The position numbers were made by a program, and so were the translations under genes. Under the pieces are notes generated by a model. It saw only the letters and a list, made by a program, of their open reading frames with translations. It was not told where the DNA came from and did not search any database. 42,539 bases of DNA from positions 1 through 42,539 of IMG/VR virus record IMGVR_UViG_3300045988_141277, one strand, 5' to 3'. This document shows positions 77-27,315 of the stretch, piece after piece. Each line of letters begins with the position of its first letter. Positions within the stretch are counted from its first letter, which is position 1. The DNA is from a virus.

Positions 77-97
77 TTAATTTTAATTAAAATAAAA

Positions 98-124
98 AGG
101 ACTAGAGTTATTCTAGTCCTTTTC
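98..124. terminator. intrinsic terminator of the plus-strand accessory operon (A-run upstream, T-run downstream)
   Basis: AGGACTAGA (98..106) pairs with TCTAGTCCT (112..120), followed by TTTT. Confidence 0.75.
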
Positions 125-217
125 TGCAAGCAATTTTATAATTACATATATTAAGTTTTAATCCTTGTTTTAATGGATATTGCTTGCTCTTATATTATAG
201 CACATATTAAAAATAGA

Positions 218-315: not shown

Positions 316-1191
316 TTATTTTTCAAATACTTCTACATATTTTGGTGAAGCTGTTATATATACTCCTGATTTTAGTTTATACATATCTGTTCCAGTTCTT
401 TTTATAGTTTCTACTACAGTATAAGCTCCTCCAGCAGTAACTTTACCTATTACATTAGCAGCATCAAAATCTGGTTTGCTATGTATGTTTATATCCTTTA
501 GTATTTTAACGTACTTAGTTTTATTAGCTCCTTGCTTTTCTGCTATATAAGTTACTCCGAAATATTCACATACTGCCTTACAAACTGCTTCAGCACATTT
601 TTCTTGATGTTTTTTATCAAGCATAAGTTTTGCTTCATTCCAATAATCCATAAAACCATACTCAATTAATATTGCTGGCATTGTTGTTTGTCTAAGTATA
701 GCTAATGTAAATCCACTCATATCTACATCTCGCATTAAACCGTAGCTATATTCGTAATTTATATCTTTTTCTAAATGTTTAACTGCTAATTTTCCAAGTC
801 TTATTGATTTTGAGGATGCGTTTTTAGTTCTCAAAACAAGAAGTCCCTTAACTCTACTTTGCCAAGCTTGACAGCTTCCTATCGCATTATAGTGATTTGA
901 AATTAATATATCTGCTTTTGCTGCATTAGCTTTGTATGCTCTCATATTAAGTGGTATATCTGTTTTACCTGTCATATCAGCTGTAAACATTGTATCTATA
1001 CCACATCTTTTTAGTGCAGCTGATAAGTATTCACTCACACCTCTATTCCATTCATTTTCTTTTATGATCTTTCCTTTTTTTCTGACTAATTCACCATCTA
1101 TGTATAAATTTTTTGACATTGGAACAGATTGTTTACCTTCTGTATGCATGCCATGCCCCGCATCTATAGCTACTAAATATTTTTTACTCAT
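316..1191 (-). CDS. endolysin: N-acetylmuramoyl-L-alanine amidase (Amidase_3-like) with C-terminal SH3b-like wall-binding domain
   Basis: N-terminus VAIDAGHG...ISNHYNA...ILIEYGFMD resembles zinc-amidase motifs. It is the last gene of the lysis cassette. RBS GGAAG lies upstream of the ATG. Confidence 0.85.
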   Translation of the reverse strand: MSKKYLVAIDAGHGMHTEGKQSVPMSKNLYIDGELVRKKGKIIKENEWNRGVSEYLSAALKRCGIDTMFTADMTGKTDIPLNMRAYKANAAKADILISNHYNAIGSCQAWQSRVKGLLVLRTKNASSKSIRLGKLAVKHLEKDINYEYSYGLMRDVDMSGFTLAILRQTTMPAILIEYGFMDYWNEAKLMLDKKHQEKCAEAVCKAVCEYFGVTYIAEKQGANKTKYVKILKDINIHSKPDFDAANVIGKVTAGGAYTVVETIKRTGTDMYKLKSGVYITASPKYVEVFEK

Positions 1192-1289
1192 AATAACACT
1201 TCCTTTTCTAAAAATAAAAGGTACTTAAAAAATCGACCTTCTTATCGACCTCCTAAGCACCTTACAGTTACCTTATAAAGTATTTATAT

Positions 1290-1547
1290 CTATTTTTCTA
1301 TCAAGTTCTTAAAAGCTTGATGTAAGCCTGTAGATGCAAGCCCTGAAAATAATCCACCAAGTATAACTTCTGGACTTACATATCCAGCTATCCATATGTT
1401 TAAAGCGCATCCTAAAAGTGCCATGATGCAAGGTATGTATTTATTTTCTATAAAACTAAAACTTGTTTTTATAACATATCCTACACATACACAAATACCT
1501 ACTACTGCTAAAACTAAGTAGCCACCTAATAAATTTAAATCAAACAT
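1290..1547 (-). CDS. holin
   Basis: 85 aa with several hydrophobic helices and a charged C-terminus, located between the XhlA-like gene and the endolysin. Confidence 0.75.
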   Translation of the reverse strand: MFDLNLLGGYLVLAVVGICVCVGYVIKTSFSFIENKYIPCIMALLGCALNIWIAGYVSPEVILGGLFSGLASTGLHQAFKNLIEK

Positions 1548-2022: not shown

Positions 2023-2050
2023 AAAAAAGACTAGAAATTAATCTAGTCTG
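2023..2050 (-). terminator. intrinsic terminator of the acyltransferase moron
   Basis: AGACTAGA (2028..2035) pairs with TCTAGTCT (2042..2049). The U-run lies on the minus strand. The hairpin overlaps the stop codon. Confidence 0.7.
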
Positions 2051-3056
2051 TAATAGCTTGTCTTCTTGATGTAAATTTTGCTACAATATTACTCCACAAA
2101 TATGCCACTATCATAGCTAATAAATATGCAATAATATTTAATACTATATGGTATTTATCTATAACTATTATTTTTTCTGAAAATGATAAAATCCATAATA
2201 TTTTTTCATGAAATAAATATATTTCTAAACTATATATTCCTAAAAATGTTAATAGTTTAAATTTACCATTGCTAAATTTATCTAGTATCTTTGTTGCTAA
2301 TAAGCAGATACTTAAAGATAGTGGAATATAAACATAATATTTTAAAGCAAATGGAATATAAATAACATCTGGATTTACAATTAGTAAACTAACTATCAAA
2401 CTGATAATAGCAAAAAAATAAATTATCTTACTGTTTAGAGATATTTTTTCTTTATTTACTATAATATTCCCTATATAAAGACCTATTATAAAAATAGGTA
2501 TTCTACATATAAAAATTAATAAATAGTCTAAAATATTATCTAACATTGTAAATCTTATCAATAATCCTAAAACAATAAAAAATAAACTTGATATAACTGT
2601 AACTTTTTTAGGATTTTTATTCATAAAATCTAAATAAAAAGGTGTAATTAGATATAAAACTAATATAGCTGATATAAACCACCATGTTATGTTTCCTTTT
2701 ATCCAAAATCCTAAAGTTGTTACTCCTAAAAAAATATCTATTATTTTACCTTTAAATACTAACGTAAATGCGCAATACCATACTATTGCAACTGGAATAA
2801 ATGTAGGTAAAATTCTTAATACTCTTTTCTTATAAAAATATTTTTTATCGTTATTTTTTGAATAGGAGAAATATAGACCTATTCCAGATAATAATAAAAA
2901 TATATCTACCCCTACATCTCCAATATCTTTTAAACTCCTTATAATATTTATGTTCTTAACATCAATGCCTGTATGGAATATTAATATTAATAACATAGCT
3001 AAGCCCATTAATTGTGTTCTATACTTACTTAATAAACTAATTTTATTGTCATCCAT
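2043..3056 (-). CDS. integral-membrane acyltransferase family 3 (O-acyltransferase), lysogenic-conversion moron
   Basis: About 10 predicted TM helices. The N-terminal motif LMGLAMLLILIFH is typical of Acyl_transf_3. The start was moved to the ATG at 3056, which is preceded by AAAGGGGGTG (the ORF track gives 3077). Confidence 0.75.
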   Translation of the reverse strand: MDDNKISLLSKYRTQLMGLAMLLILIFHTGIDVKNINIIRSLKDIGDVGVDIFLLLSGIGLYFSYSKNNDKKYFYKKRVLRILPTFIPVAIVWYCAFTLVFKGKIIDIFLGVTTLGFWIKGNITWWFISAILVLYLITPFYLDFMNKNPKKVTVISSLFFIVLGLLIRFTMLDNILDYLLIFICRIPIFIIGLYIGNIIVNKEKISLNSKIIYFFAIISLIVSLLIVNPDVIYIPFALKYYVYIPLSLSICLLATKILDKFSNGKFKLLTFLGIYSLEIYLFHEKILWILSFSEKIIVIDKYHIVLNIIAYLLAMIVAYLWSNIVAKFTSRRQAITD

Positions 3057-3075
3057 ATATACACCCCCTTTTATC

Positions 3076-3104
3076 ATTATAATAAAAGCGAGTGTATTTT
3101 TCTA
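3076..3104 (-). promoter_or_regulatory. candidate sigma-A promoter of the acyltransferase moron
   Basis: The minus strand reads TAGAAA-17nt-TATAAT directly upstream of the RBS. Confidence 0.4.
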
Positions 3105-7534: not shown

Positions 7535-10500
7535 CTATAATTTCTTAGGTCTAGCACAGAATAATATTTTATCAGTTGTATTGTTTGTAATTCCTGTTAT
7601 TCTAACTCCATTTGTAACTGTTGTAGATTCTATTATGTTTACTGACCCGCCATCTTCAGTTGGTCCAACTACAATGGCTACATGTGAGCAGTTCATATAA
7701 CGACCATTTTCTCCGTTATCTCTATCAAAAAAAACGAGGTCTCCAGCTTTCAAGTTTGAATAATTGATTATATCAATATCATGTAGTACCCAGCCTTTTT
7801 TAACACAATATTCTGCTTGTTCTGCTGCTGTCCTTGGTAACATAAATGCCCAGCTAGTATCTGAATTTTTAACTAATTTCTTTAGTTTGTGATTGGCATA
7901 AGGACTTTTATCGTACGGTATATCCGCATAAACAAATATAGCCAAAGAGCTACAGTCAATATTAGCTTTTTTAGCAGTAGCATCATACCATTTATTTAAG
8001 TTTCCAGCCATATCATTAGGGAAACTGGTAGGCTCAGATTTAACAGCAAATGAATTATCTCCATATCGCAACCCAGTTCGATTTAGGTATGTTTTTGCAG
8101 TTTTTACAGCTTTTTCGCCACCAACAAATTTATAAGTTTTTGCATATCCTTCACTTTTATCTACGGAAACTGAGCCATAGTATTTATAGTCAATACTTGT
8201 ATTTACATTAGCCATTATTATAATTTTATAACCTGTATTCGGTTTTGGAACTAGTTGGCCAGCTATACAATCTACACCTTCAAGATAACAAATTTTACTT
8301 TGTGTATAACTAATTTCATCTGCTGTAGTAAACACCATTCTAGCATAAAAACTTTTATCAACTTTATTTTTAAGTCTGAAAGTAAGAGACTTAATTGTTT
8401 TTTTCCAAGTATAAGTTTTTGTACTTTCTAATAATATATTTACTGTTTCACCTTCTCTTTTAGATGCATTACCATCATCCCCAGTGTCACCACCGCCAGT
8501 ATCTCCTCCACCAGTGTTACTGCTATCATCCTTTTTCTTATAACCTATTGGAGTAGCCAGTAATTTTTCTTTTATTGCATTATAAAAAACACCAATACTG
8601 GAATCATCTTTAAATGTATAACCATCATTAGTGTAATTAGGATTTAATAAATTCGTATAAGTTTCTAATTTGCTAGATATATCTAATAAAAATACATTTT
8701 CTTCATTGTCACAGAATGTTTTAATTTCAGTGTTAAATGCATCTATAGAAGTATTTACAGTTGTATAATCTGCATAAGCAGTTCCAACATGTAATTCCTT
8801 TAATATGAAAATCGGTGTATTTCTATATTTTGTTTTTAAGATATTTGTAAGAGTTTTAATTCCTGTTATACCTTTTTCTGTTAGATCATTCAATCCAAAA
8901 TGAACAAGTGCATAAGGTGATGAACTTGGATATGCTTTATCATCATCTTCGTATAAGCCTTCTACTGTAGTTAACAAATTATTATTATCGCCATAAAAAT
9001 CATATGCATTTGCCTTTCTAACCGCTTTTATGTACACTTCATTCATATCTGTCTTGTCGATTACAGGAGTGTCCTCTACATTATTGTTATCGGCTTCAAC
9101 TAAATCGTAAGGTCTTAAACAAAATCCGTATTTATAGATATCATTGTATACTGGCATATACCTTATAGCCTTTGGCCAATAATCCCACTTTCTAGCATGA
9201 GCTACCATATGTGTTCCGTTTTCTTTACCGCAGTAAATTAACGTATGATGAGTAAAGTTCTTTGCCATAGCTTTCGCTCTAGTTAATGTTGTAGGGCACT
9301 CTTTATTACACATCATTATAATATCTCCAGCTTTCATATTTTCTATAGATGTTTTAGTGATTTTAAACATTTTATACCCATCTTTAGCCGTTGCATATTT
9401 AACCAATGTACCATATGCACAATATGAATCACTATGGAATATACTTTTTAATCCAGCTTCACCATAGCAACAAGTCACTAAAGAAGAGCAATCGTAACAA
9501 ATAGGATTTTTTATTCCGTAAAAAGTGCCTTTTCTTTTGTTAGGCTTTTTAAAGTTCCAAGTACGATAACTTTGGTCATATGTTGCCAACTTATCTGTAT
9601 GTTGTTGTGCTATAGCTTTTGCCGTATCAACTATTATTTGTCTTATATCAGATGCGCTTGTTTGACCTTTTGCTTTTGGAGTAGATGTACCAACTCCATA
9701 ACCTAATTTATTGCCCTGTGCATCCATATAATAAGGTAATTGGCCATTTACTACTTTATACCAACATAGATATAATTCTACGTTATTTGGTGTTCCTAAT
9801 CCCTTTTGGTCTTTTAATTTTTGTCTATAAGCTGCAAAGTCAAATTTTCCACTATCTAATTCCTCGTAAACCTTTAATTTTGTTTCGTTTGATTGAGAAC
9901 TCAAATAATAAGAATCAACGAATGTATATCCGTATTTATCGCACACATACTTACTCACTATCCAGTTAAGTGAGCCTTGACCCATATTATTAGCAACTAA
10001 TCCACCAAATATATTTCCGTGTGCATAATCGATAGCTTGACGTAGTTCCCAGCAACCAAATCTTATTTGATTTAAGATATTTTTATCAACTGTTATTCCA
10101 TTGACTGTTGTGTTTCCGGCTTTGTAAGGTGTCATTGTTGCATAAGAAGGAAGAAATTTATAAGTGCTGCCGTCTAAATATTTTATAGTTTGTGCCTTAT
10201 TTCCCCACTCTTTGAAGTATGTACTTCTTTCACATTGCATTAGTCCGTAACCACCATTACTACCTGTAGTACTATAAGGGTCACCTCTAGATTCTCCCAT
10301 TATGACTGCATACACTAGGTTTGGATCTAATCCAAATTTTCTAGCATAATGTTCAACTATAAGATATAGTTTATATTTATTTCCTGTAGATGATAGCTCA
10401 TTGAGATTCGCTTTATTTTGATATTTACCTATGTCATATTTCTCATATAATGCTAATGCTTCTGCATATATATCATTAGTTTTATCAGTAGTAGATACTG

Positions 10501-13893: not shown

Positions 13894-16791
13894 TTATCTA
13901 CCTCTCTTCCTGTTTTCTCTTCTTGCTTTTACTTTTATTTTATCATCTACTATATCTGCAGTAGATTCACCTATGACCTTGCTATCAAGATATACTGGCA
14001 TTACTATCCTCATATCTCTTGTAGTAGCTTTTGCTGTGCTATTAGAAGAACTAGATACACCACTTGAACTAGAAAAGCTTGAAGTTGATGTACTAGCTAA
14101 ACTAGCAGTAGCAGCATTATTTGTAGCTCTTATAGCACTATATGCTAAGTTTGAATATGCCATTGTGTTTACAGCTTTTAAATTAGCTGTTCTAGCACTC
14201 TGATTTACAGTATTAACAGTTCTAGTAACATTAACTTTAGTGTTAAGTGTTCTATTTGTAGCAGATGCTATTTTAGACATATAACTATTTACAGAACTAT
14301 AAGCTTGTGACATTTGAGTTTGTATAACCTTGCGCAAAGATATAAAGCTTCTTGTAGCATTGTTACGTGCATTTTGTGACTGTGTTCTTACAACATTAGC
14401 AATAGATATCATCTTACTTGTTACAGCAGTTCTAGCTTGTGTTATTTGTGTATTTATAACTTTTCTAAGTGATATAAAGCTCTTTGTTGCGCTATTTCTA
14501 GCATTTTGAGATTGATTTTTTATAATATTAGCTAGGTTGACAAATTGATTTCTACCTATGTTAACACTACCCACTAAATTTTCTCTAACTGTATTTCTAA
14601 TTTTTCCAAAGCTTGAACCTATACCATTAGCTACATTTTGAGTTGTTGTTTGTAAGGATTTTAATTCTTTTTCTAACTCTTTTAGTTGACTAGTATTCAT
14701 AGTTTCTAGCTTATTCATTATATTTTGGGAAATGCCATCGCCTATTTCTGTTGCAGTAGCATTTGTTGTAGATTTACTTTGTTCAAGTCCTGAGTTTATA
14801 CCATTGGTGTAATTTTGCCCACTAGAAATACCCCATTGTTGATAAGCATCTTGTCCGTCACTGTTAAATAATCCAGTAAAAAATCCTTTTATACCAGCAA
14901 ATTTATCCATTGTAAAGCCTTTTAAGAATCCCCATATAAATTTATCTGCTACTGAACCACCAAGCATACCCATATTTTCTGCATTTGCAGCCGACCAATC
15001 GTTCATTGCATCATAGATAATACCGCATGCTGAATTTATTTGATCTCTATTATTTCTTATTCCGTTTCCTATAGCTTCTAAGATAACTTTGCCAGCTTGT
15101 TGAATCATTGGTCCATTTTCTTGAATCCAGCTACAAACTTTTGATATCAAACTACTTATTGCAGTCGATAAACCTTCTTTATTGTTTATTATGCCTTGAG
15201 CTATATTTTTAACCATGCTACTACCCATACTTAATAAACTATCTAAAGAGCCACCACTTATAAATCTATTAGCACCACTTATTGCATTTGATATTAAATT
15301 AGGTATATTTTTAGCTGCATTAGATACTTTTGTTTCTAAGTCAGCCAATCCTTTTTCAAATCCATCAAAAGTATAAGTGTTTTTATCTCCGTTTCTCCAA
15401 GTCGAGAAAAAGTCTGTAAGCGCTTGAGAGCCGTTTATAAGCGCTGGTTTCATTTTTTCAAATGCACCGATTAAACTATCTTCTATCGCACTTGATAATG
15501 CTAAGAATGTTGATTTTGTTGTTTCATCAATGCTGTCAGCTAATCTAGTTGATAATCCTTCAATTTCTTTAAGATTCTTCTTGTAAGTTGCATATTTTTC
15601 ATCTGACATATCAACTATTTCGTTAACTTCATCAAAGCTATCTCCAAGTCCTATAGTTTGCAATTTAGCTTTTATTTGTTCGTCTGACATACCTTTAAAG
15701 GCTTGTCGTAGGTAATCTGTCTTTTGAGACATTGACAATGTAGATAATGATATTTTTTCAGCTTCTATTCCATATTTAGAAAGCTTACTGTTAGCATCGT
15801 CTATTGTCATTCCTTCTTTTACAAGTGATTTAACATATTCTTTTGTGTTTTTATAGTTTTCATTATGAGCTTTAGCATATTCTACTGTATGATCACTAAG
15901 TCCAACTATAGAATTATCTACAGCACTTAAAGTTCCGTTATAATCTATAAGTTGATTTATTGCTTTTCCGTCTATTTCTATGTTTTTAGCATTTCCTACA
16001 CTTCTCCAGAATTTATCAACTTTACCACTAGCATTATCCATAGATTCTACTACATCGAGTAAATCTTCTACAGATTGAGAACTAACTTTACAATCATCAC
16101 CAAGTAAAGATATTGCATATCCTAAGTCTTTACTAGACAATCCTAATGCTGTTGCTGATGTTTCAGTATTAGAAAATACATCTTTCATTACTTCTATTCT
16201 CTTTGTAGCATCTTCGCCTTTTAAACCTAAGATGTTCATATTTTCATTAAACATTGATACTGTAGAAGTTGAATTGTCTATCGCTTCTGATAGCTTGTTG
16301 TATTCTTCTGCTGATGCATTAACAAGTGACATAACTCCTGGTAAAGCATTTTTACCAGCAACAGTAGCTATCAAAGCTGCTTTTTGACTTCTTGTCATAT
16401 TTTCTGTGCCTTCTCTTAATGCTTTTACTGTAGCTTCTAAATCTGTACATCCGTCAGCTGTTGTTTTTAGATAACTTCCTGTTTTGTCTGCTGTTAATCC
16501 TAACTTTTCAAGCGCAGCAGTTTGTTGATCTGTCGGGTGTGACATATTCGATAACATATTTTTTAATGACATGCCTGCCTTCGAACCTTTTATACCTGCA
16601 TTAGCTTGAAGTCCAATAGCAGTTGATAAATCTGTCATAGAAGCACCTAATGCTCCAGCGATAGCACCTGTTTGTTTCATAGATTCACCGAATAAAACAA
16701 CATCGGTATTACTTCTAGTAATAGTTGCAGCTAATTTATCTGCAAAGTCGCCAGCTTGATTTGCTTGCATGCCAAGTGCAGTTAAATCATC
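13894..16791 (-). CDS. tape measure protein, exon 3
   Basis: It begins DDLTALGMQANQAGDFADKLAA, which continues the TP901-type TMP core. The sequence is long, helical and low in complexity. Confidence 0.8.
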   Translation of the reverse strand, partial: DDLTALGMQANQAGDFADKLAATITRSNTDVVLFGESMKQTGAIAGALGASMTDLSTAIGLQANAGIKGSKAGMSLKNMLSNMSHPTDQQTAALEKLGLTADKTGSYLKTTADGCTDLEATVKALREGTENMTRSQKAALIATVAGKNALPGVMSLVNASAEEYNKLSEAIDNSTSTVSMFNENMNILGLKGEDATKRIEVMKDVFSNTETSATALGLSSKDLGYAISLLGDDCKVSSQSVEDLLDVVESMDNASGKVDKFWRSVGNAKNIEIDGKAINQLIDYNGTLSAVDNSIVGLSDHTVEYAKAHNENYKNTKEYVKSLVKEGMTIDDANSKLSKYGIEAEKISLSTLSMSQKTDYLRQAFKGMSDEQIKAKLQTIGLGDSFDEVNEIVDMSDEKYATYKKNLKEIEGLSTRLADSIDETTKSTFLALSSAIEDSLIGAFEKMKPALINGSQALTDFFSTWRNGDKNTYTFDGFEKGLADLETKVSNAAKNIPNLISNAISGANRFISGGSLDSLLSMGSSMVKNIAQGIINNKEGLSTAISSLISKVCSWIQENGPMIQQAGKVILEAIGNGIRNNRDQINSACGIIYDAMNDWSAANAENMGMLGGSVADKFIWGFLKGFTMDKFAGIKGFFTGLFNSDGQDAYQQWGISSGQNYTNGINSGLEQSKSTTNATATEIGDGISQNIMNKLETMNTSQLKELEKELKSLQTTTQNVANGIGSSFGKIRNTVRENLVGSVNIGRNQFVNLANIIKNQSQNARNSATKSFISLRKVINTQITQARTAVTSKMISIANVVRTQSQNARNNATRSFISLRKVIQTQMSQAYSSVNSYMSKIASATNRTLNTKVNVTRTVNTVNQSARTANLKAVNTMAYSNLAYSAIRATNNAATASLASTSTSSFSSSSGVSSSSNSTAKATTRDMRIVMPVYLDSKVIGESTADIVDDKIKVKARRENRKRGR
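14330..14525 (-). repeat. in-frame 132-bp (44-aa) tandem duplication inside the TMP
   Basis: QSQNARN(S/N)AT(K/R)SFISLRKVI.TQ occurs twice. The DNA word gatataaagct occurs at 14339 and 14471. Confidence 0.7.
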
Positions 16792-18204
16792 CATTATCTT
16801 ATATCTAGGCTCTTTATCCTAGAACTCTTACTTTCATAAGAGGATGGGACTATATCATCACCTTTAACTTAATAGTAAGGTGTTCGGCGCTCGTGGGAGA
16901 AATTATTATTTGCCTATTCATTCTCCTAGTCTCTGAACCTTCCATGTACTTTTACGGCTTTCCATGGCTTGGTTGCTGATTAGCATATTAATATTAATTT
17001 ATGGTATTAAAAAAACACCCTTTAAAGAGTGTTTTCTTTTTTATTATTTATAAATTCAATATATTGTTCTTTTGTATTGTCTCCCATTCCGTATTTAATA
17101 TGGAAATATCTATGACATTGCTTGCAAAGTGTAACTCCATTGTTTATATCAGTTCTATGCTCCTTGTCCCAGTTGTAACTATTAAGATGGTGTGCAACTA
17201 AGTCTCCACCTCTTTTACCACAATATTGGCAAGTATAATTATCCCTTTTATAAACACCATAAACCCATTTTTTATATCCTTCTATGATTCTTCCTTTTTC
17301 TCTTTCTTCTTGAGTTTTTCCCGGATTCCACATTTTATTTTTACTTCCTCTTATTTTTTCTCCTTTGCCATAGTTAGGATTATTTTCACCCTTTAATATT
17401 TCCTTTTGGTGGTTTGATTTACATTCTTGTGAACAATATACATTTTTATTATTTTTTATTTTACATTTTAGGATAGTGAATTCTTTAGAACAATAAGAAC
17501 ATCTAACCTTTACAGTTGCATTTTTATAGTTAGGATTATTTTCACCCTTACCAGTTTGTTTTTGATGTTCATATTTGCACTCCTGAGAACAATAGTGATG
17601 TTTACTTCTTTCGTAAGTACTTTTTGTTACACTGATTTCTTTTCCACAATAACTACATTTTATAGTTATTCTATTTGTCATCGATTTTACTCTACATTCT
17701 GAACTACAATACTTTTGCGAACTTTTACGTGGTTTAAATTTTGTTTTACATATAGGGCATATTTTTTCTTTTGTTTTTATTTTTGAACAATATCCACACT
17801 GTCTTTTTTGTCTTTTATCTTTTCTCATAAAATCAGAATACCTAACTTGAAAAACTTCGCCACATCTACATTGAACACTTAGTTTTTCTTGGTTTCCATT
17901 ATATTCTCTAGATAATAATTTACAACCACTTCCACTATCAATTTCTATAAATTTTTTAACTTCTTCATAAGTTAATTTTTTAGACATAACAAAAACACCT
18001 CCGACAGTATTTTCAATTTATCCGATTATTAAATTTTTATTAAATAGGGAAGAAAGCTCGGATAACTTTCTTATCGCTAAGGCTCGCGACTTCCTTAACT
18101 ATCCCTATATTTATTATACCATAAATTACAAATATTAACTTAGCCTTCCAGCAATTCACCGAATATTTTTTGAATAGTATTTCTACTAAACCGACCAATA
18201 TTTT
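16792..18204 (-). mobile_element. group I intron 2 (IA2-like) carrying an HNH homing endonuclease ORF
   Basis: On the minus strand: P element AAUUGCUGGAAGG (18144..18156), Q AAUCAGCAAC (16972..16981), R GUUCAGAGACUAGG (16925..16938), S GAUAUAGUCC (16847..16856). The 5' exon ends GACU and pairs with GGUC. The last intron nucleotide is G. Confidence 0.8.
17022..17987 (-). CDS. intron-encoded HNH homing endonuclease with tandem zinc-ribbon modules
   Basis: C-terminal HNH motif GGDLVAHHLNSYNWDKEHRTDINNGVTLCKQCHRYFH. Three to four repeats of CxxC...YCSxEC. RBS GGAGGTG. Confidence 0.85.
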   Translation of the reverse strand: MSKKLTYEEVKKFIEIDSGSGCKLLSREYNGNQEKLSVQCRCGEVFQVRYSDFMRKDKRQKRQCGYCSKIKTKEKICPICKTKFKPRKSSQKYCSSECRVKSMTNRITIKCSYCGKEISVTKSTYERSKHHYCSQECKYEHQKQTGKGENNPNYKNATVKVRCSYCSKEFTILKCKIKNNKNVYCSQECKSNHQKEILKGENNPNYGKGEKIRGSKNKMWNPGKTQEEREKGRIIEGYKKWVYGVYKRDNYTCQYCGKRGGDLVAHHLNSYNWDKEHRTDINNGVTLCKQCHRYFHIKYGMGDNTKEQYIEFINNKKENTL

Positions 18205-18309
18205 AGTCAAAATATCTGAGGCTGTTCCTAAATCTGTAGCCCCTATTTTTGCTAAATTTAATGTTGATTGTACTCCGTCAAGCATTTCTTGAGTTGACCA
18301 ACCAGCCAT
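18205..18309 (-). CDS. tape measure protein, exon 2 (35 codons)
   Basis: MAGWSTQEMLDGVQSTLNLAKIGATDLGTASDILT is conserved TMP core sequence. The rest of track ORF 18040..18309 is read-through into the intron. Confidence 0.75.
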
Positions 18310-18571
18310 CTAAACTTCATTGTCTAGGCTCTTTATCCTAGAACTTAGGTTTCCCTAAGAGTTGGACTATTTCTTTACCTTCAACTTCACTTGTTAAGGT
18401 AGTGGATTTCGTGGATATTTCAACTGTTCTAGTTTACTTTATCTAGTCTCTAAACCTTCTATATATCCCTATATAGATTGGTAATTGATTAGCATATCTT
18501 TTGACTTAGCTTTCCAATTTTAACCCACTATTTTTTACTATAAATTTCTTTATAGCCGACCATGTATGTTT
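18310..18571 (-). mobile_element. group I intron 1 (262 nt, no ORF), paralogous to intron 2
   Basis: R GGUUUAGAGACUAGA (18442..18456). S AAAUAGUCC (18364..18372, revcomp of plus ggactattt). The 5' exon ends GGCU and pairs with GGUC. The terminal nucleotide is G. GNRA-capped P2, P6 and P9 helices covary with those of intron 2. Confidence 0.8.
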
Positions 18572-19189
18572 AGCCATATATTGCATTGCTTGGCCCACTT
18601 GACTAGCGCTAAATGTAGTAGCAGCTCCTAATTCTCTAGCTTTTGCAACTAGCTGGTCAAATTCAGTTCCTACACTTCCAGCTATTGTAGCAACTGTTTT
18701 CATTTGTGATTCAAAGTTTGCTCCAGTTGTTATAAGACTTGAAAGATTAAAATCAAATCCTGTTAACTCACTAAAAGCATCTTTGACTGCATTTATCGAG
18801 GTGAGCATACCTTGAAACACAGGGGAGACTGTATCTTTTATGTTGTTAAGCCCTTCAAAAAACCTCTGTTTTCCAGCATCATATAACTTTTTAGTAGCAA
18901 CAGTTAAAGCAGCCACAACTACAAGGGCTTTTGCTGGTCCAGGTAATGCTTTAAATACTTGTCCTAAATTAGATGCTTTAGTTTTAACTTCTTCTAGCTT
19001 TTTGCCAAAGTCAGAAGCTCCTAATGCATCACTCAATTTACTATTGCCAGTCGCCTTTTTAATGCTTTCTGACATATCCTGAATTGATTTTCTAGCATCT
19101 TGCATTTTTGTTTTGAAGGAAGCTATATCAGCATTAATCTTTACATTTAAAACTTTAGTTGCTATTTTCACCACCTCCAAATTTTTCAA
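18572..19189 (-). CDS. tape measure protein, exon 1
   Basis: It ends ...ATTFSASQVGQAMQYMA. The remaining 22 codons of track ORF 18506..19189 are intron sequence. The exact start is uncertain because the track start is a TTG. Confidence 0.75.
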
Positions 19190-25628: not shown

Positions 25629-26879
25629 CTATATTCCTAAATCAAGTTTTTCTGATTTAATTCTATTTTTCATCTTTGTACTTTCCATAGCATACCTTAG
25701 TGCATCCATTAAATGGTTATAGTCATCTATTGGTTTATTTAATACAACTCCATCTTTATTATCCCAAACGTAGTTATTTAACTCTATCAATGTATTTTCA
25801 CATTTAGGATGTACATATATCTTATAGTCTTGTATGTTCGCTATGCCATTTAAAATAGAATCTTTTCCTTTTAATGCTGCTTTTATCCTTCTTATGCCTT
25901 TTTTCTTTATATCATCAATACTTTTAGGTTCTGAGCTATCGGCTATAATAGTTTCTTTTGCATATCCTTTATATTTAATCATAGAAGCTATATCTGAGTT
26001 GCTCATAGCCTTTTGATAATGTTCATCAAATATATATAATAAATTCTGTTCTTGGTTAACTAAGATACATATAAAAGCTGTTGGGTCATTTGTATAACCA
26101 AAGTCAAGTCCGAAATATGCATTAACACCTTCTTGCTTGCTTATTTCTTTATAATCGAACTCTAATTCTTCAAAGTTTTCATATACAAGGCCTTCAGCTA
26201 TTCCCCAATCTCCTAAGCCTTCTATGTTGTATCTTCTAGGATTATTCTTTTTCATTTTAGCGAATATTCTTCTGTCATCTTCACCTAAGAACTCATTACA
26301 TTTGTAATTTGTTGTTAAAGCTAATATATCTTCATCTTTCACATCAAAAAATCTTTTCTTTAACCAGTGTTTTTCACTCCAAGGGTTAAATGTTAGAGTT
26401 ATTTGTTTAAAATATCCTGGAGGTAATTCACCTCTTATAGACATATCAACTTTATTAAAAGAATCTTCGTCCATTATCTGGAATGCTTCTTCAAACCAGC
26501 ACCAACATAAATATCCAATTTCTACTGTTATAGATGTTATAGACATTGGATCATCTAATCCTCTAAATAAGATTTTCTGTCCTGTAGGTAAATAAGTAGC
26601 TTCTAATGGTGATTTACTAAATTTCCATAAATGTGATACTCCTAAATTATTAGTTGCCCACTTTAATTGGGTCCAAGTTGAATCCTTATGAGTATTAAAT
26701 ACTCTTCTTATTACCAAAGTGTTAGCTAATGGATATTGCATCATTTTGTATATTATCCATTGTGCATTTGTAGTAGATTTTTTACTAGCTCTGCCACCTT
26801 TTACAATCCTATATCTTCCTTTGAAGTTCCAAAATGTTTTATATCCTTTGCCTATCTTCTTAGAAATATCAATCTTCAA
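25629..26879 (-). CDS. terL: terminase large subunit (PBSX/Terminase_3-like)
   Basis: Walker-A-like KGGRASKKS. The start was moved to the TTG at 26879, preceded by GGAGAGG (the track ATG at 26915 overlaps terS by 47 nt). Confidence 0.85.
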   Translation of the reverse strand: MKIDISKKIGKGYKTFWNFKGRYRIVKGGRASKKSTTNAQWIIYKMMQYPLANTLVIRRVFNTHKDSTWTQLKWATNNLGVSHLWKFSKSPLEATYLPTGQKILFRGLDDPMSITSITVEIGYLCWCWFEEAFQIMDEDSFNKVDMSIRGELPPGYFKQITLTFNPWSEKHWLKKRFFDVKDEDILALTTNYKCNEFLGEDDRRIFAKMKKNNPRRYNIEGLGDWGIAEGLVYENFEELEFDYKEISKQEGVNAYFGLDFGYTNDPTAFICILVNQEQNLLYIFDEHYQKAMSNSDIASMIKYKGYAKETIIADSSEPKSIDDIKKKGIRRIKAALKGKDSILNGIANIQDYKIYVHPKCENTLIELNNYVWDNKDGVVLNKPIDDYNHLMDALRYAMESTKMKNRIKSEKLDLGI

Positions 26880-27315
26880 GGTTATCCTCTCCAACAAATA
26901 TAACTTGATTAACATCAGCTTCTATTTTTTCAGTATATAAGCCATATCTTTTACCTAGAAGTTCAGCACATTTATTAGAATCTTTTATAGATATTTTTTT
27001 CTTAACCATTTGAGGCTCACTTGTAAACTCGCCTTTATTCACCATAACTACAACTTCTTCTTCTAATTCCTGTCGCATACCTTTTGTTAAATATTCTAAA
27101 ATTTCCGTTGCATCTGCAATTCTATTATTGCTTATCTCCTCCATTTTTTCTTTTATATATTTTTTTACCGAGTCTTTTCCGAGTAACTTTCTTGCATTAG
27201 CTTCTGCTACCTCTCTTTTACTTGCTTTATACCCAGCTTTAATATATGATTCAGTAGCATTGCCTAACTTAATATAATATTCTGCAAAAGCTTTTTGTTT
27301 TATAGTTAATCCCAC
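26869..27315 (-). CDS. terS: terminase small subunit
   Basis: The N-terminus LTIKQKAFAEYYIKLGNATESYIKAGY is typical of the Terminase_2 HTH. It lies upstream of terL. Confidence 0.8.
   Translation of the reverse strand: MGLTIKQKAFAEYYIKLGNATESYIKAGYKASKREVAEANARKLLGKDSVKKYIKEKMEEISNNRIADATEILEYLTKGMRQELEEEVVVMVNKGEFTSEPQMVKKKISIKDSNKCAELLGKRYGLYTEKIEADVNQVIFVGEDNLED

Follow-up and report, generated by a model that had tools for sequence, protein, structure and literature searches.

A tape-measure gene very probably interrupted by two paralogous group I introns in a temperate gut siphovirus

The stretch of DNA analysed here (hereafter the window, 42,539 nt, positions 1 to 42,539 of IMG/VR record IMGVR_UViG_3300045988_141277) is the 42.5-kb genome of a temperate siphovirus with a G+C content of 30.7%. 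Its tape-measure protein (TMP) gene, on the minus strand, follows the tail tube gene (PF06199), precedes that of Dit (PF05709/PF22768) and is found in three coding pieces separated by intervening sequences, the longer of which carries an open reading frame (ORF) resembling HNH homing endonucleases (Table 1). A first-pass annotation, made from the letters alone, had proposed that this gene is split in three by two paralogous group I introns only 105 nt apart. Covariance-model searches, intron-less natural alleles, Pfam matches and helix covariation all bear this proposal out, and we consider it very probable that the locus is a TP901-type TMP gene interrupted within its conserved PhageMin_Tail core by two paralogous introns of subgroup IA.

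Table 1. Coordinates of the tape-measure locus and of other genes in the window (aa, amino acids).
Feature	Position	Strand	Remarks
TMP exon 1	18572..19189	-	618 nt; 3' end ...CAAUAUAUGGCU; junction checked against intron-less alleles
Predicted group I intron 1	18310..18571	-	262 nt, no ORF; TMP site A; Rfam match and covariation of P2 to P9.1
Intron 1 internal guide GGUC	18558..18561	-	pairs with exon end GGCU, U.G at splice site
Intron 1 R element	18442..18456	-	GGUUUAGAGACUAGA
Intron 1 S element	18364..18372	-	AAAUAGUCC
TMP exon 2	18205..18309	-	105 nt, 35 aa: MAGWSTQEMLDGVQSTLNLAKIGATDLGTASDILT
Predicted group I intron 2	16792..18204	-	1413 nt; TMP site B; 288-nt ribozyme plus 1125-nt insert
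Intron 2 5' ribozyme part	18116..18204	-	P1 guide, P2, 5' strands of P3, P4 and P5
Intron 2 internal guide GGUC	18193..18196	-	pairs with exon end GACU, U.G at splice site
Insert in P5 terminal loop of intron 2	16991..18115	-	1125 nt; closing helix AAUUUAUGGUAU/AUACCAUAAAUU; from comparison with ORF-less alleles
HNH homing-endonuclease-like ORF	17022..17987	-	321 aa, inside the P5-loop insert
Intron 2 3' ribozyme part	16792..16990	-	P5', P4', P6, P7, P7.1, P3', P8, P7', P9, P9.1, omega-G
Intron 2 R element	16925..16938	-	GUUCAGAGACUAGG
Intron 2 S element	16847..16856	-	GAUAUAGUCC
TMP exon 3	13894..16791	-	2898 nt, 966 codons counting the first GAU
Terminase large subunit	25629..26915	-	uninterrupted in the window
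SPP1-type portal, tail tube, Dit, tail lysin, amidase endolysin		-	genes on the same strand as the tape measure; tail lysin of 1444 aa
Serine recombinase	near right end	+	

Exons and splice junctions

The first-pass annotation had joined the three pieces into a TP901-type protein of 1206 aa, and this assembly holds: the exon lengths (618 + 105 + 2898 nt) add up to a total divisible by 3, the join is in frame and the reading is free of stops. The conceptually spliced protein has a single PF10145 (PhageMin_Tail) match at aa 183-387 (E 2.5e-42, 145.5 bits against a cut-off of 33.2), which crosses both junctions, 206/207 (...QYMA/MAGW...) and 241/242 (...DILT/DDLT...). Intron-less homologues had been expected to run on across these points, and they do. 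A 194-aa spliced query covering both junctions gave single-piece alignments, spanning 80% or more of its length, with 934 phage records, the top ones being Clostridium and Clostridioides phages at about 50% identity, and two intron-less proteins that are 98-99% identical to the query (P0001 and P0002) read uninterrupted through ...QYMAMAGWSTQ...DILTDDLTALG.... Other relatives show mixed states: intron 1 is absent and intron 2 present in P0006 and P0007, P0007 having the ORF-less allele of intron 2, while P0003 begins at exon 2 and lacks intron 2. On close relatives, gene callers start the TMP at VKIATK or MKIATK (P0001 and P0007 begin M/VKIATKVLNV), so that the GTG at 19171 is the likely true start in the window, and not the TTG at 19189 where the ORF opens mechanically.

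The exact junctions are fixed at the nucleotide level by intron-less natural alleles. Spliced 60-mers were predicted for site A (CAAGTGGGCCAAGCAATGCAATATATGGCT joined to ATGGCTGGTTGGTCAACTCAAGAAATGCTT) and site B (GATTTAGGAACAGCCTCAGATATTTTGACT joined to GATGATTTAACTGCACTTGGCATGCAAGCA). The site A 60-mer aligned without gaps to alleles L001, L002, L003, L039, L044 and L055 (56-59 of 60 nt), and the site B 60-mer, likewise ungapped, to L001-3, L026, L035, L057 and L004 (52-58 of 60 nt); the alleles agree with the first-pass junctions at both sites. The site B junction is unique. That of site A is ambiguous by one base, and the ambiguity was settled in favour of the first-pass coordinates because of the rule that U precedes a group I intron and G ends it. 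Both 5' exons do end in U, which forms the U.G pair, and both introns in G (omega-G at 16792 in intron 2), as had been claimed. The predicted junction-spanning peptides are ...QAMQYMAMAGWSTQEM... and ...ASDILTDDLTALGM....

Two ORFs called mechanically in the window had been read as exon-intron chimeras, and closer inspection confirms this. ORF 18506..19189 consists of exon 1 and 21 codons of read-through into intron 1, and ORF 18040..18309 extends from the Met that opens exon 2 to 54 codons inside intron 2; the corresponding read-through peptides are ...YMAKHTWSAIKK... and ...DILTKILVGLVE....

The last two codons before site B (18205..18210) were compared between the window and L001, L026, L035 and L004. 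They read UUGACU where the intron is present and UUAACA, UUGACG or UUAACG in intron-less alleles, all synonymous. These changes abolish the U required at the splice site, and they may also affect recognition by the endonuclease. Relatives of the gene region were found with protein-level and 'distant' search modes; a megablast of the whole region against the phage collection returned no match.

The two ribozymes and the endonuclease insert

Intron 1 matches the Rfam model Intron_gpI (RF00028) with 60.1 bits (E 6e-13), above the gathering score of 50, and L048 has an identical copy of it. For intron 2 the match is restricted to the 3' part (40.4 bits, E 2.5e-8), a low value that arises because the 1125-nt insert splits the covariance model: a 288-nt ORF-less allele at the same site in L048, L030, L039 and L055, about 1 nt different from the two ribozyme parts of the window (99-100% identical), scores 105.9 bits. 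Run on the full window in 'evalue' mode, Rfam listed a CRISPR repeat only and left out Intron_gpI, unlike the gathering mode and a local run, and we treat this omission as a filter artefact.

The R and S elements, internal guides, P2, P3 and P4 that the first-pass annotation had named were all found, and every coordinate it gave is correct. Intron 1 has AAUUG/CAAUU as its P4 where intron 2 has UUGCUG/CAGCAA, P3 changes from UAGUGG/CCACUA to UUCGGU/GCCGAA between the two introns, and a GAAA loop caps P2 in either intron. When the insert is left out, the introns are identical at 163 of 259 aligned positions (63%), the junction sequences being conserved and the helices varying by compensatory changes; the two form separate branches of a single family. 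In relatives, introns at a further position of the TMP gene, site C, share 83% identity with intron 1.

This family was retrieved with the 22-nt P9.1 hairpin common to both introns (GUUCUAGGAUAAAGAGCCUAGA), which occurs in 52 IMG/VR contigs and 3 genomes, and 24 distinct ORF-less members were aligned. RNAalifold independently finds P2, P3, P4, P5, P6/P6a, P7.1, P8, P9 and P9.1 in the alignment. Once P7 is added as a pseudoknot, 98% of all cells form standard pairs, compared with 31-42% when the partners are slid by 1-3 columns. Changes on both sides occur in 34 of 53 pairs, and the observed values were reached by none of 500 shuffles; the covariation first seen between the two copies extends to the family at large. 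P1 covaries as well: the exon/guide pairs are GGCU/GGUC at site A, GACU/GGUC at site B, GGGU/GCUC at site C and at site A of a Romboutsia prophage, and GGGU/GCCC at site E and others. For P10, a CAU just upstream of the intron 1 guide can pair with the AUG of exon 2, and a GAU:AUU pairing is also present; at site C the guide has changed from C to U along with a shift of the exon from AUU to GUA, which weakly favours P10. P5 bears GCUAAG...UAUGC, which resembles the 11-nt receptor for GAAA tetraloops, and both L2 and L9 are GAAA.

The assignment to subgroup IA is supported by the extra helix between P7 and P3'. This helix, P7.1, is GAUA/UAUC in one intron and GGAG/CUCC in the other, with 3 of its 4 pairs changing on both sides; P9 and P9.1 are both present. 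In the Michel-Westhof scheme, IA2 introns carry two hairpins, P7.1 and P7.2, between P7 and P3'. The first-pass annotation had suggested IA2 from extra helices in this segment. One such helix is borne out by covariation, but in the family alignment the segment reads as a single extended hairpin, not clearly as two (intron 1 has an inner NNCU-AGAAC-AGNN helix there, intron 2 a loop of 19 nt), and the assignment to IA2 rather than IA1 is accordingly unproven.

The ORF within the insert of intron 2 has its own Shine-Dalgarno sequence (GGAGGUG, 7 nt upstream of the AUG) and encodes tandem Cys4 zinc-ribbon modules with GENNPNY linkers, followed by a C-terminal HNH domain. It matches PF01844 (29.6 bits against a cut-off of 21.4) and phrog_1271, an HNH endonuclease family (E 2e-28), and carries the motif ...AHHLNSYNWD...NNGVTLCKQCH...; a sequence search of the PDB gave weak matches to HNH-like folds only. 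The identical protein occurs at the same location in at least 11 metagenomic contigs, and ORFs of sister introns, lying at other sites or in other loops, are 35-44% identical to it. What is left of the insert differs among ORF-less alleles of intron 2: the 5' flank in L030, the 3' flank in L022 and almost nothing in L029 and L051. This is the pattern expected if a homing endonuclease gene had invaded and then decayed. The introns themselves are present or absent among alleles that are 96-99% identical.

A hairpin followed by seven U residues (AACACUC-UUUAAA-GGGUGUU, then U7; 17009..17033, minus) overlaps the stop codon of the HNH ORF. It lies inside intron 2, on the same strand as the TMP gene, and resembles an intrinsic terminator. 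It went unflagged in a consensus scan for promoters and terminators, which gave counts at shuffle level and whose only terminator calls were the reverse complement of P9.1. Folding of the leader of intron 2 that precedes the ORF gave a z of -1.3.

Proposed mechanism and alternative explanations

After late transcription, each intron would fold as the family alignment predicts, and its GGUC guide would form P1 by pairing with the last bases (GGCU or GACU) of the exon upstream, with a U.G pair at the cleavage site. Exogenous guanosine would then attack the 5' splice site, and the freed exon would attack behind the terminal G of the intron, so that a single mRNA would encode a tape measure of about 1200 aa. 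The HNH enzyme of intron 2 would cut intron-less TMP alleles of related phages, co-infecting or resident, and recombinational repair of the cut allele would copy the intron in, i.e., homing. This course of events follows the standard mechanism of phage group I introns that carry a homing endonuclease.

Several points weigh against this interpretation. Intron 2 as present in the window falls under the Rfam gathering score, and the model search which the first-pass annotation had put forward for both introns came out in favour of intron 1 directly and of intron 2 by way of its ORF-less allele. The P10 pairings (AUG:CAU and GAU:AUU) exist as described, but each is just 3 bp. P7 (GACUA/UAGUC) is invariant in the family and hence beyond the reach of covariation; it is supported solely by conservation and the Rfam alignment. 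The hairpin at 17009..17033, if it terminated transcription, would reduce expression of exon 3. Finally, we infer catalytic splicing, endonuclease activity and homing from sequence.

Some of these points would fit a scenario in which the introns are real but one of them, with intron 2 as the candidate, is incompetent for splicing and the prophage is a tail-defective remnant; the 40.4 bits scored in the window and the hairpin with its U-run speak for it. However, the allele that scores 105.9 bits matches both ribozyme parts of intron 2 at 99-100% identity, the insert sits in a terminal loop closed by a 12-bp helix, the usual place for an intron ORF, and the same arrangement, with an identical endonuclease and an intact exon 3 of 966 codons, recurs in at least 11 independent contigs. 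The remaining structural genes of the window are also intact, and we regard this scenario as improbable. Less probable still is that ordinary insertions, a free-standing HNH gene and non-coding spacers, have fragmented the TMP gene, with its pieces made as separate polypeptides or not at all and no splicing taking place. Gene callers do annotate the pieces separately, and free-standing HNH genes are common in phages, but ordinary insertions would not account for group I covariance-model matches and helix-by-helix compensatory changes in the intervening sequences, for boundaries that follow the group I pattern, a U ahead of the intron and a G as its last base, or for the fact that removing these sequences restores the intron-less allele to the nucleotide; a 35-aa exon 2 is, besides, implausible as a protein by itself. 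Insertion of a free-standing HNH gene was rejected on the covariance model, the compensatory changes and the exact intron-less junctions, and a pseudogenised TMP gene was also rejected. An intact tape-measure gene split by a pair of group I introns remains by far the most probable account of the locus.

Related introns, genome setting and implications

The same family occupies at least five sites of the TMP core, all within about 115 codons, in related gut phage contigs. In the residue numbering of the window these lie after 206 (A), 241 (B), about 276 (E), about 309 (C) and about 321 (D); occupancy was taken from hand-checked loci only, the automated table being noisy from low-identity repeat alignments. 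The most densely interrupted gene, in L036 (2861..5240), has four introns (1164, 294, 270 and 303 nt), between which lie exons of 105, 198 and 45 nt; spliced conceptually, it reads as one continuous ORF of at least 935 aa. Introns C and D flank the same 45-nt exon in L001 (6905..8590); the exon reads IKGSKAGMSLKNMLA or VKGSKAGMSLKNMLA in these contigs. Because relatives have exons as short as this, the 105-nt spacing of the two introns in the window is unexceptional for the family. Guides differ between sites by one or two substitutions (GGUC, GCUC, GCCC), and endonuclease genes lie in different loops or have been lost. In L048, a close relative, at about 350..1500, another group-I-like core (...GGGGCAGAGACUAGAAC...) and an HNH-like ORF interrupt what appears to be the large terminase gene; Rfam at the gathering score did not report this element.

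Introns in tape-measure genes have been described before, and the novelty implied by the first-pass annotation was too high. Group I introns occur at three TMP sites in prophages of the Bacillus cereus group, including lambdaBa01 of B. anthracis (Tourasse and Kolsto 2008, PMC2504315). There, TMP-IVS1 and TMP-IVS2 are IA2 paralogues of 80% identity whose P1 guides are adapted to different sites, endonuclease genes are present or lost depending on the copy, and prophages spread the introns (PMC2504315). The Bacillus introns TMP-IVS1, IVS2 and IVS3 thus share with those of the window the host gene (a TMP of more than 1200 aa), occupancy of several sites by retargeted paralogues, and subgroup IA. 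The host clade differs, since the window belongs with gut phages linked to Peptostreptococcaceae; its two introns are more diverged (63% identity, against 80% for IVS1 and IVS2), and the gut phage family has at least five sites against three, with up to four introns per gene and an exon as short as 45 nt.

Two further records bear on site C, which is empty in the window. In the record of Lactobacillus delbrueckii phage JCL1032 (EU409559), the TMP coding sequence (CDS) is given as a join of two pieces, and the intron also appears in a published table (PMC2504315). Its 3' ribozyme half is 75-78% identical to the window introns over about 100 nt, including the P9.1 hairpin loop AUAAAGAG; it is the only intron in that gene, lies at ...ANRG/..GTRAGTGLRK, homologous to site C, and is found in a different host. 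In Bacillus phage Tavor_SA (a Wbetavirus of B. anthracis; KY963369, L061), the TMP is annotated as two CDSs with a 257-nt spacer (9240..9496) and without mention of an intron. This spacer matches intron 1 at 75% over 106 nt, follows the same P1 logic (GGGU at the exon end, GCCC as guide), contains no endonuclease ORF and lies at ...QNG/LKGSDAGTSLK, homologous to site C; it is a single group I intron related to those of the window.

The classical group I introns of phages include those of T4 td, nrdB and nrdD, of the SPO1 DNA polymerase gene, with its HNH endonuclease I-HmuI, and of orf142 of Staphylococcus phage Twort, where three introns lie near each other in one gene. These ribozymes belong to subgroup IA, bear endonuclease ORFs in peripheral loops and home between co-infecting phages, and their host genes, unlike the TMP gene, serve mostly nucleotide metabolism or replication. 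The window introns have no sequence match to these classical introns in the phage collection. Late structural genes are also interrupted in Cluster J mycobacteriophages, where group I introns in capsid and minor tail genes were shown to be spliced during late expression (PMC3706429); those genes do not encode tape measures, and both introns and hosts are unrelated to the ones considered here.

Since one of the at least 11 metagenomic contigs with the identical intron endonuclease spans 42,632 bp, the window probably represents a whole phage genome of metagenomic origin. Besides the tape measure, every structural gene in it is intact. The sole host lead comes from the P9.1 hairpin, which is also present in Romboutsia lituseburensis, in a Peptostreptococcaceae metagenome-assembled genome and in a genome labelled 'Firmicutes bacterium'; the portal protein had no relative in a scan of representative genomes. 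A gene for an acyltransferase of the Acyl_transf_3 family (2043..3077, minus) lies between the tail and receptor-binding genes and the endolysin gene, and is possibly a lysogenic-conversion gene.

Just downstream of the endolysin gene there is a single CRISPR-type repeat (155..191, minus; RF01320 CRISPR-DR7, 41.9 bits), with no second copy nearby. In the region 90..204, an extended -10 box (TGCTATAAT, 202..194) precedes the repeat and a strong terminator hairpin (120..98) follows it by about 35 nt; the start of the repeat, GCAAGCAAU, pairs with the downstream AUUGCUUGC, and the fold has a z of -6.3. The same 29-nt repeat occurs once each in 8 IMG/VR phage contigs, one of which also has TMP introns. 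The solitary repeat looks like a phage-encoded small RNA, possibly an RNA anti-CRISPR or a mini-array. Its core is widespread in archaea and bacteria, and hence does not point to a host.

The locus leaves current views of how group I introns or tape measures work unchanged, and the mildly novel aspect is only the density and diversity of the intron family in the TMP gene of gut phages. For annotation the consequences are practical: the TMP gene in this phage and in dozens of metagenomic relatives is currently annotated as three to six separate genes, chimeras included, so that the tape measure and the predicted tail length are missed. For the window, about 1200 aa would correspond to a tail of about 180 nm, at the rule of thumb of 1.5 A per residue. 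It is possible, at somewhat under an even chance in our judgement, that the conserved TMP core is a natural nursery in which one group I intron family diversifies within a gut phage lineage. Were this true, and were the density to exceed that of the described cases, the family would permit direct tests of how group I introns arrive at new sites, by reverse splicing or by endonuclease-driven ectopic homing. As it stands, the locus represents a further family of mobile introns in a late structural gene, polymorphic and with many members, in which guide retargeting and the gain and loss of endonuclease genes can be followed among near-identical genomes.

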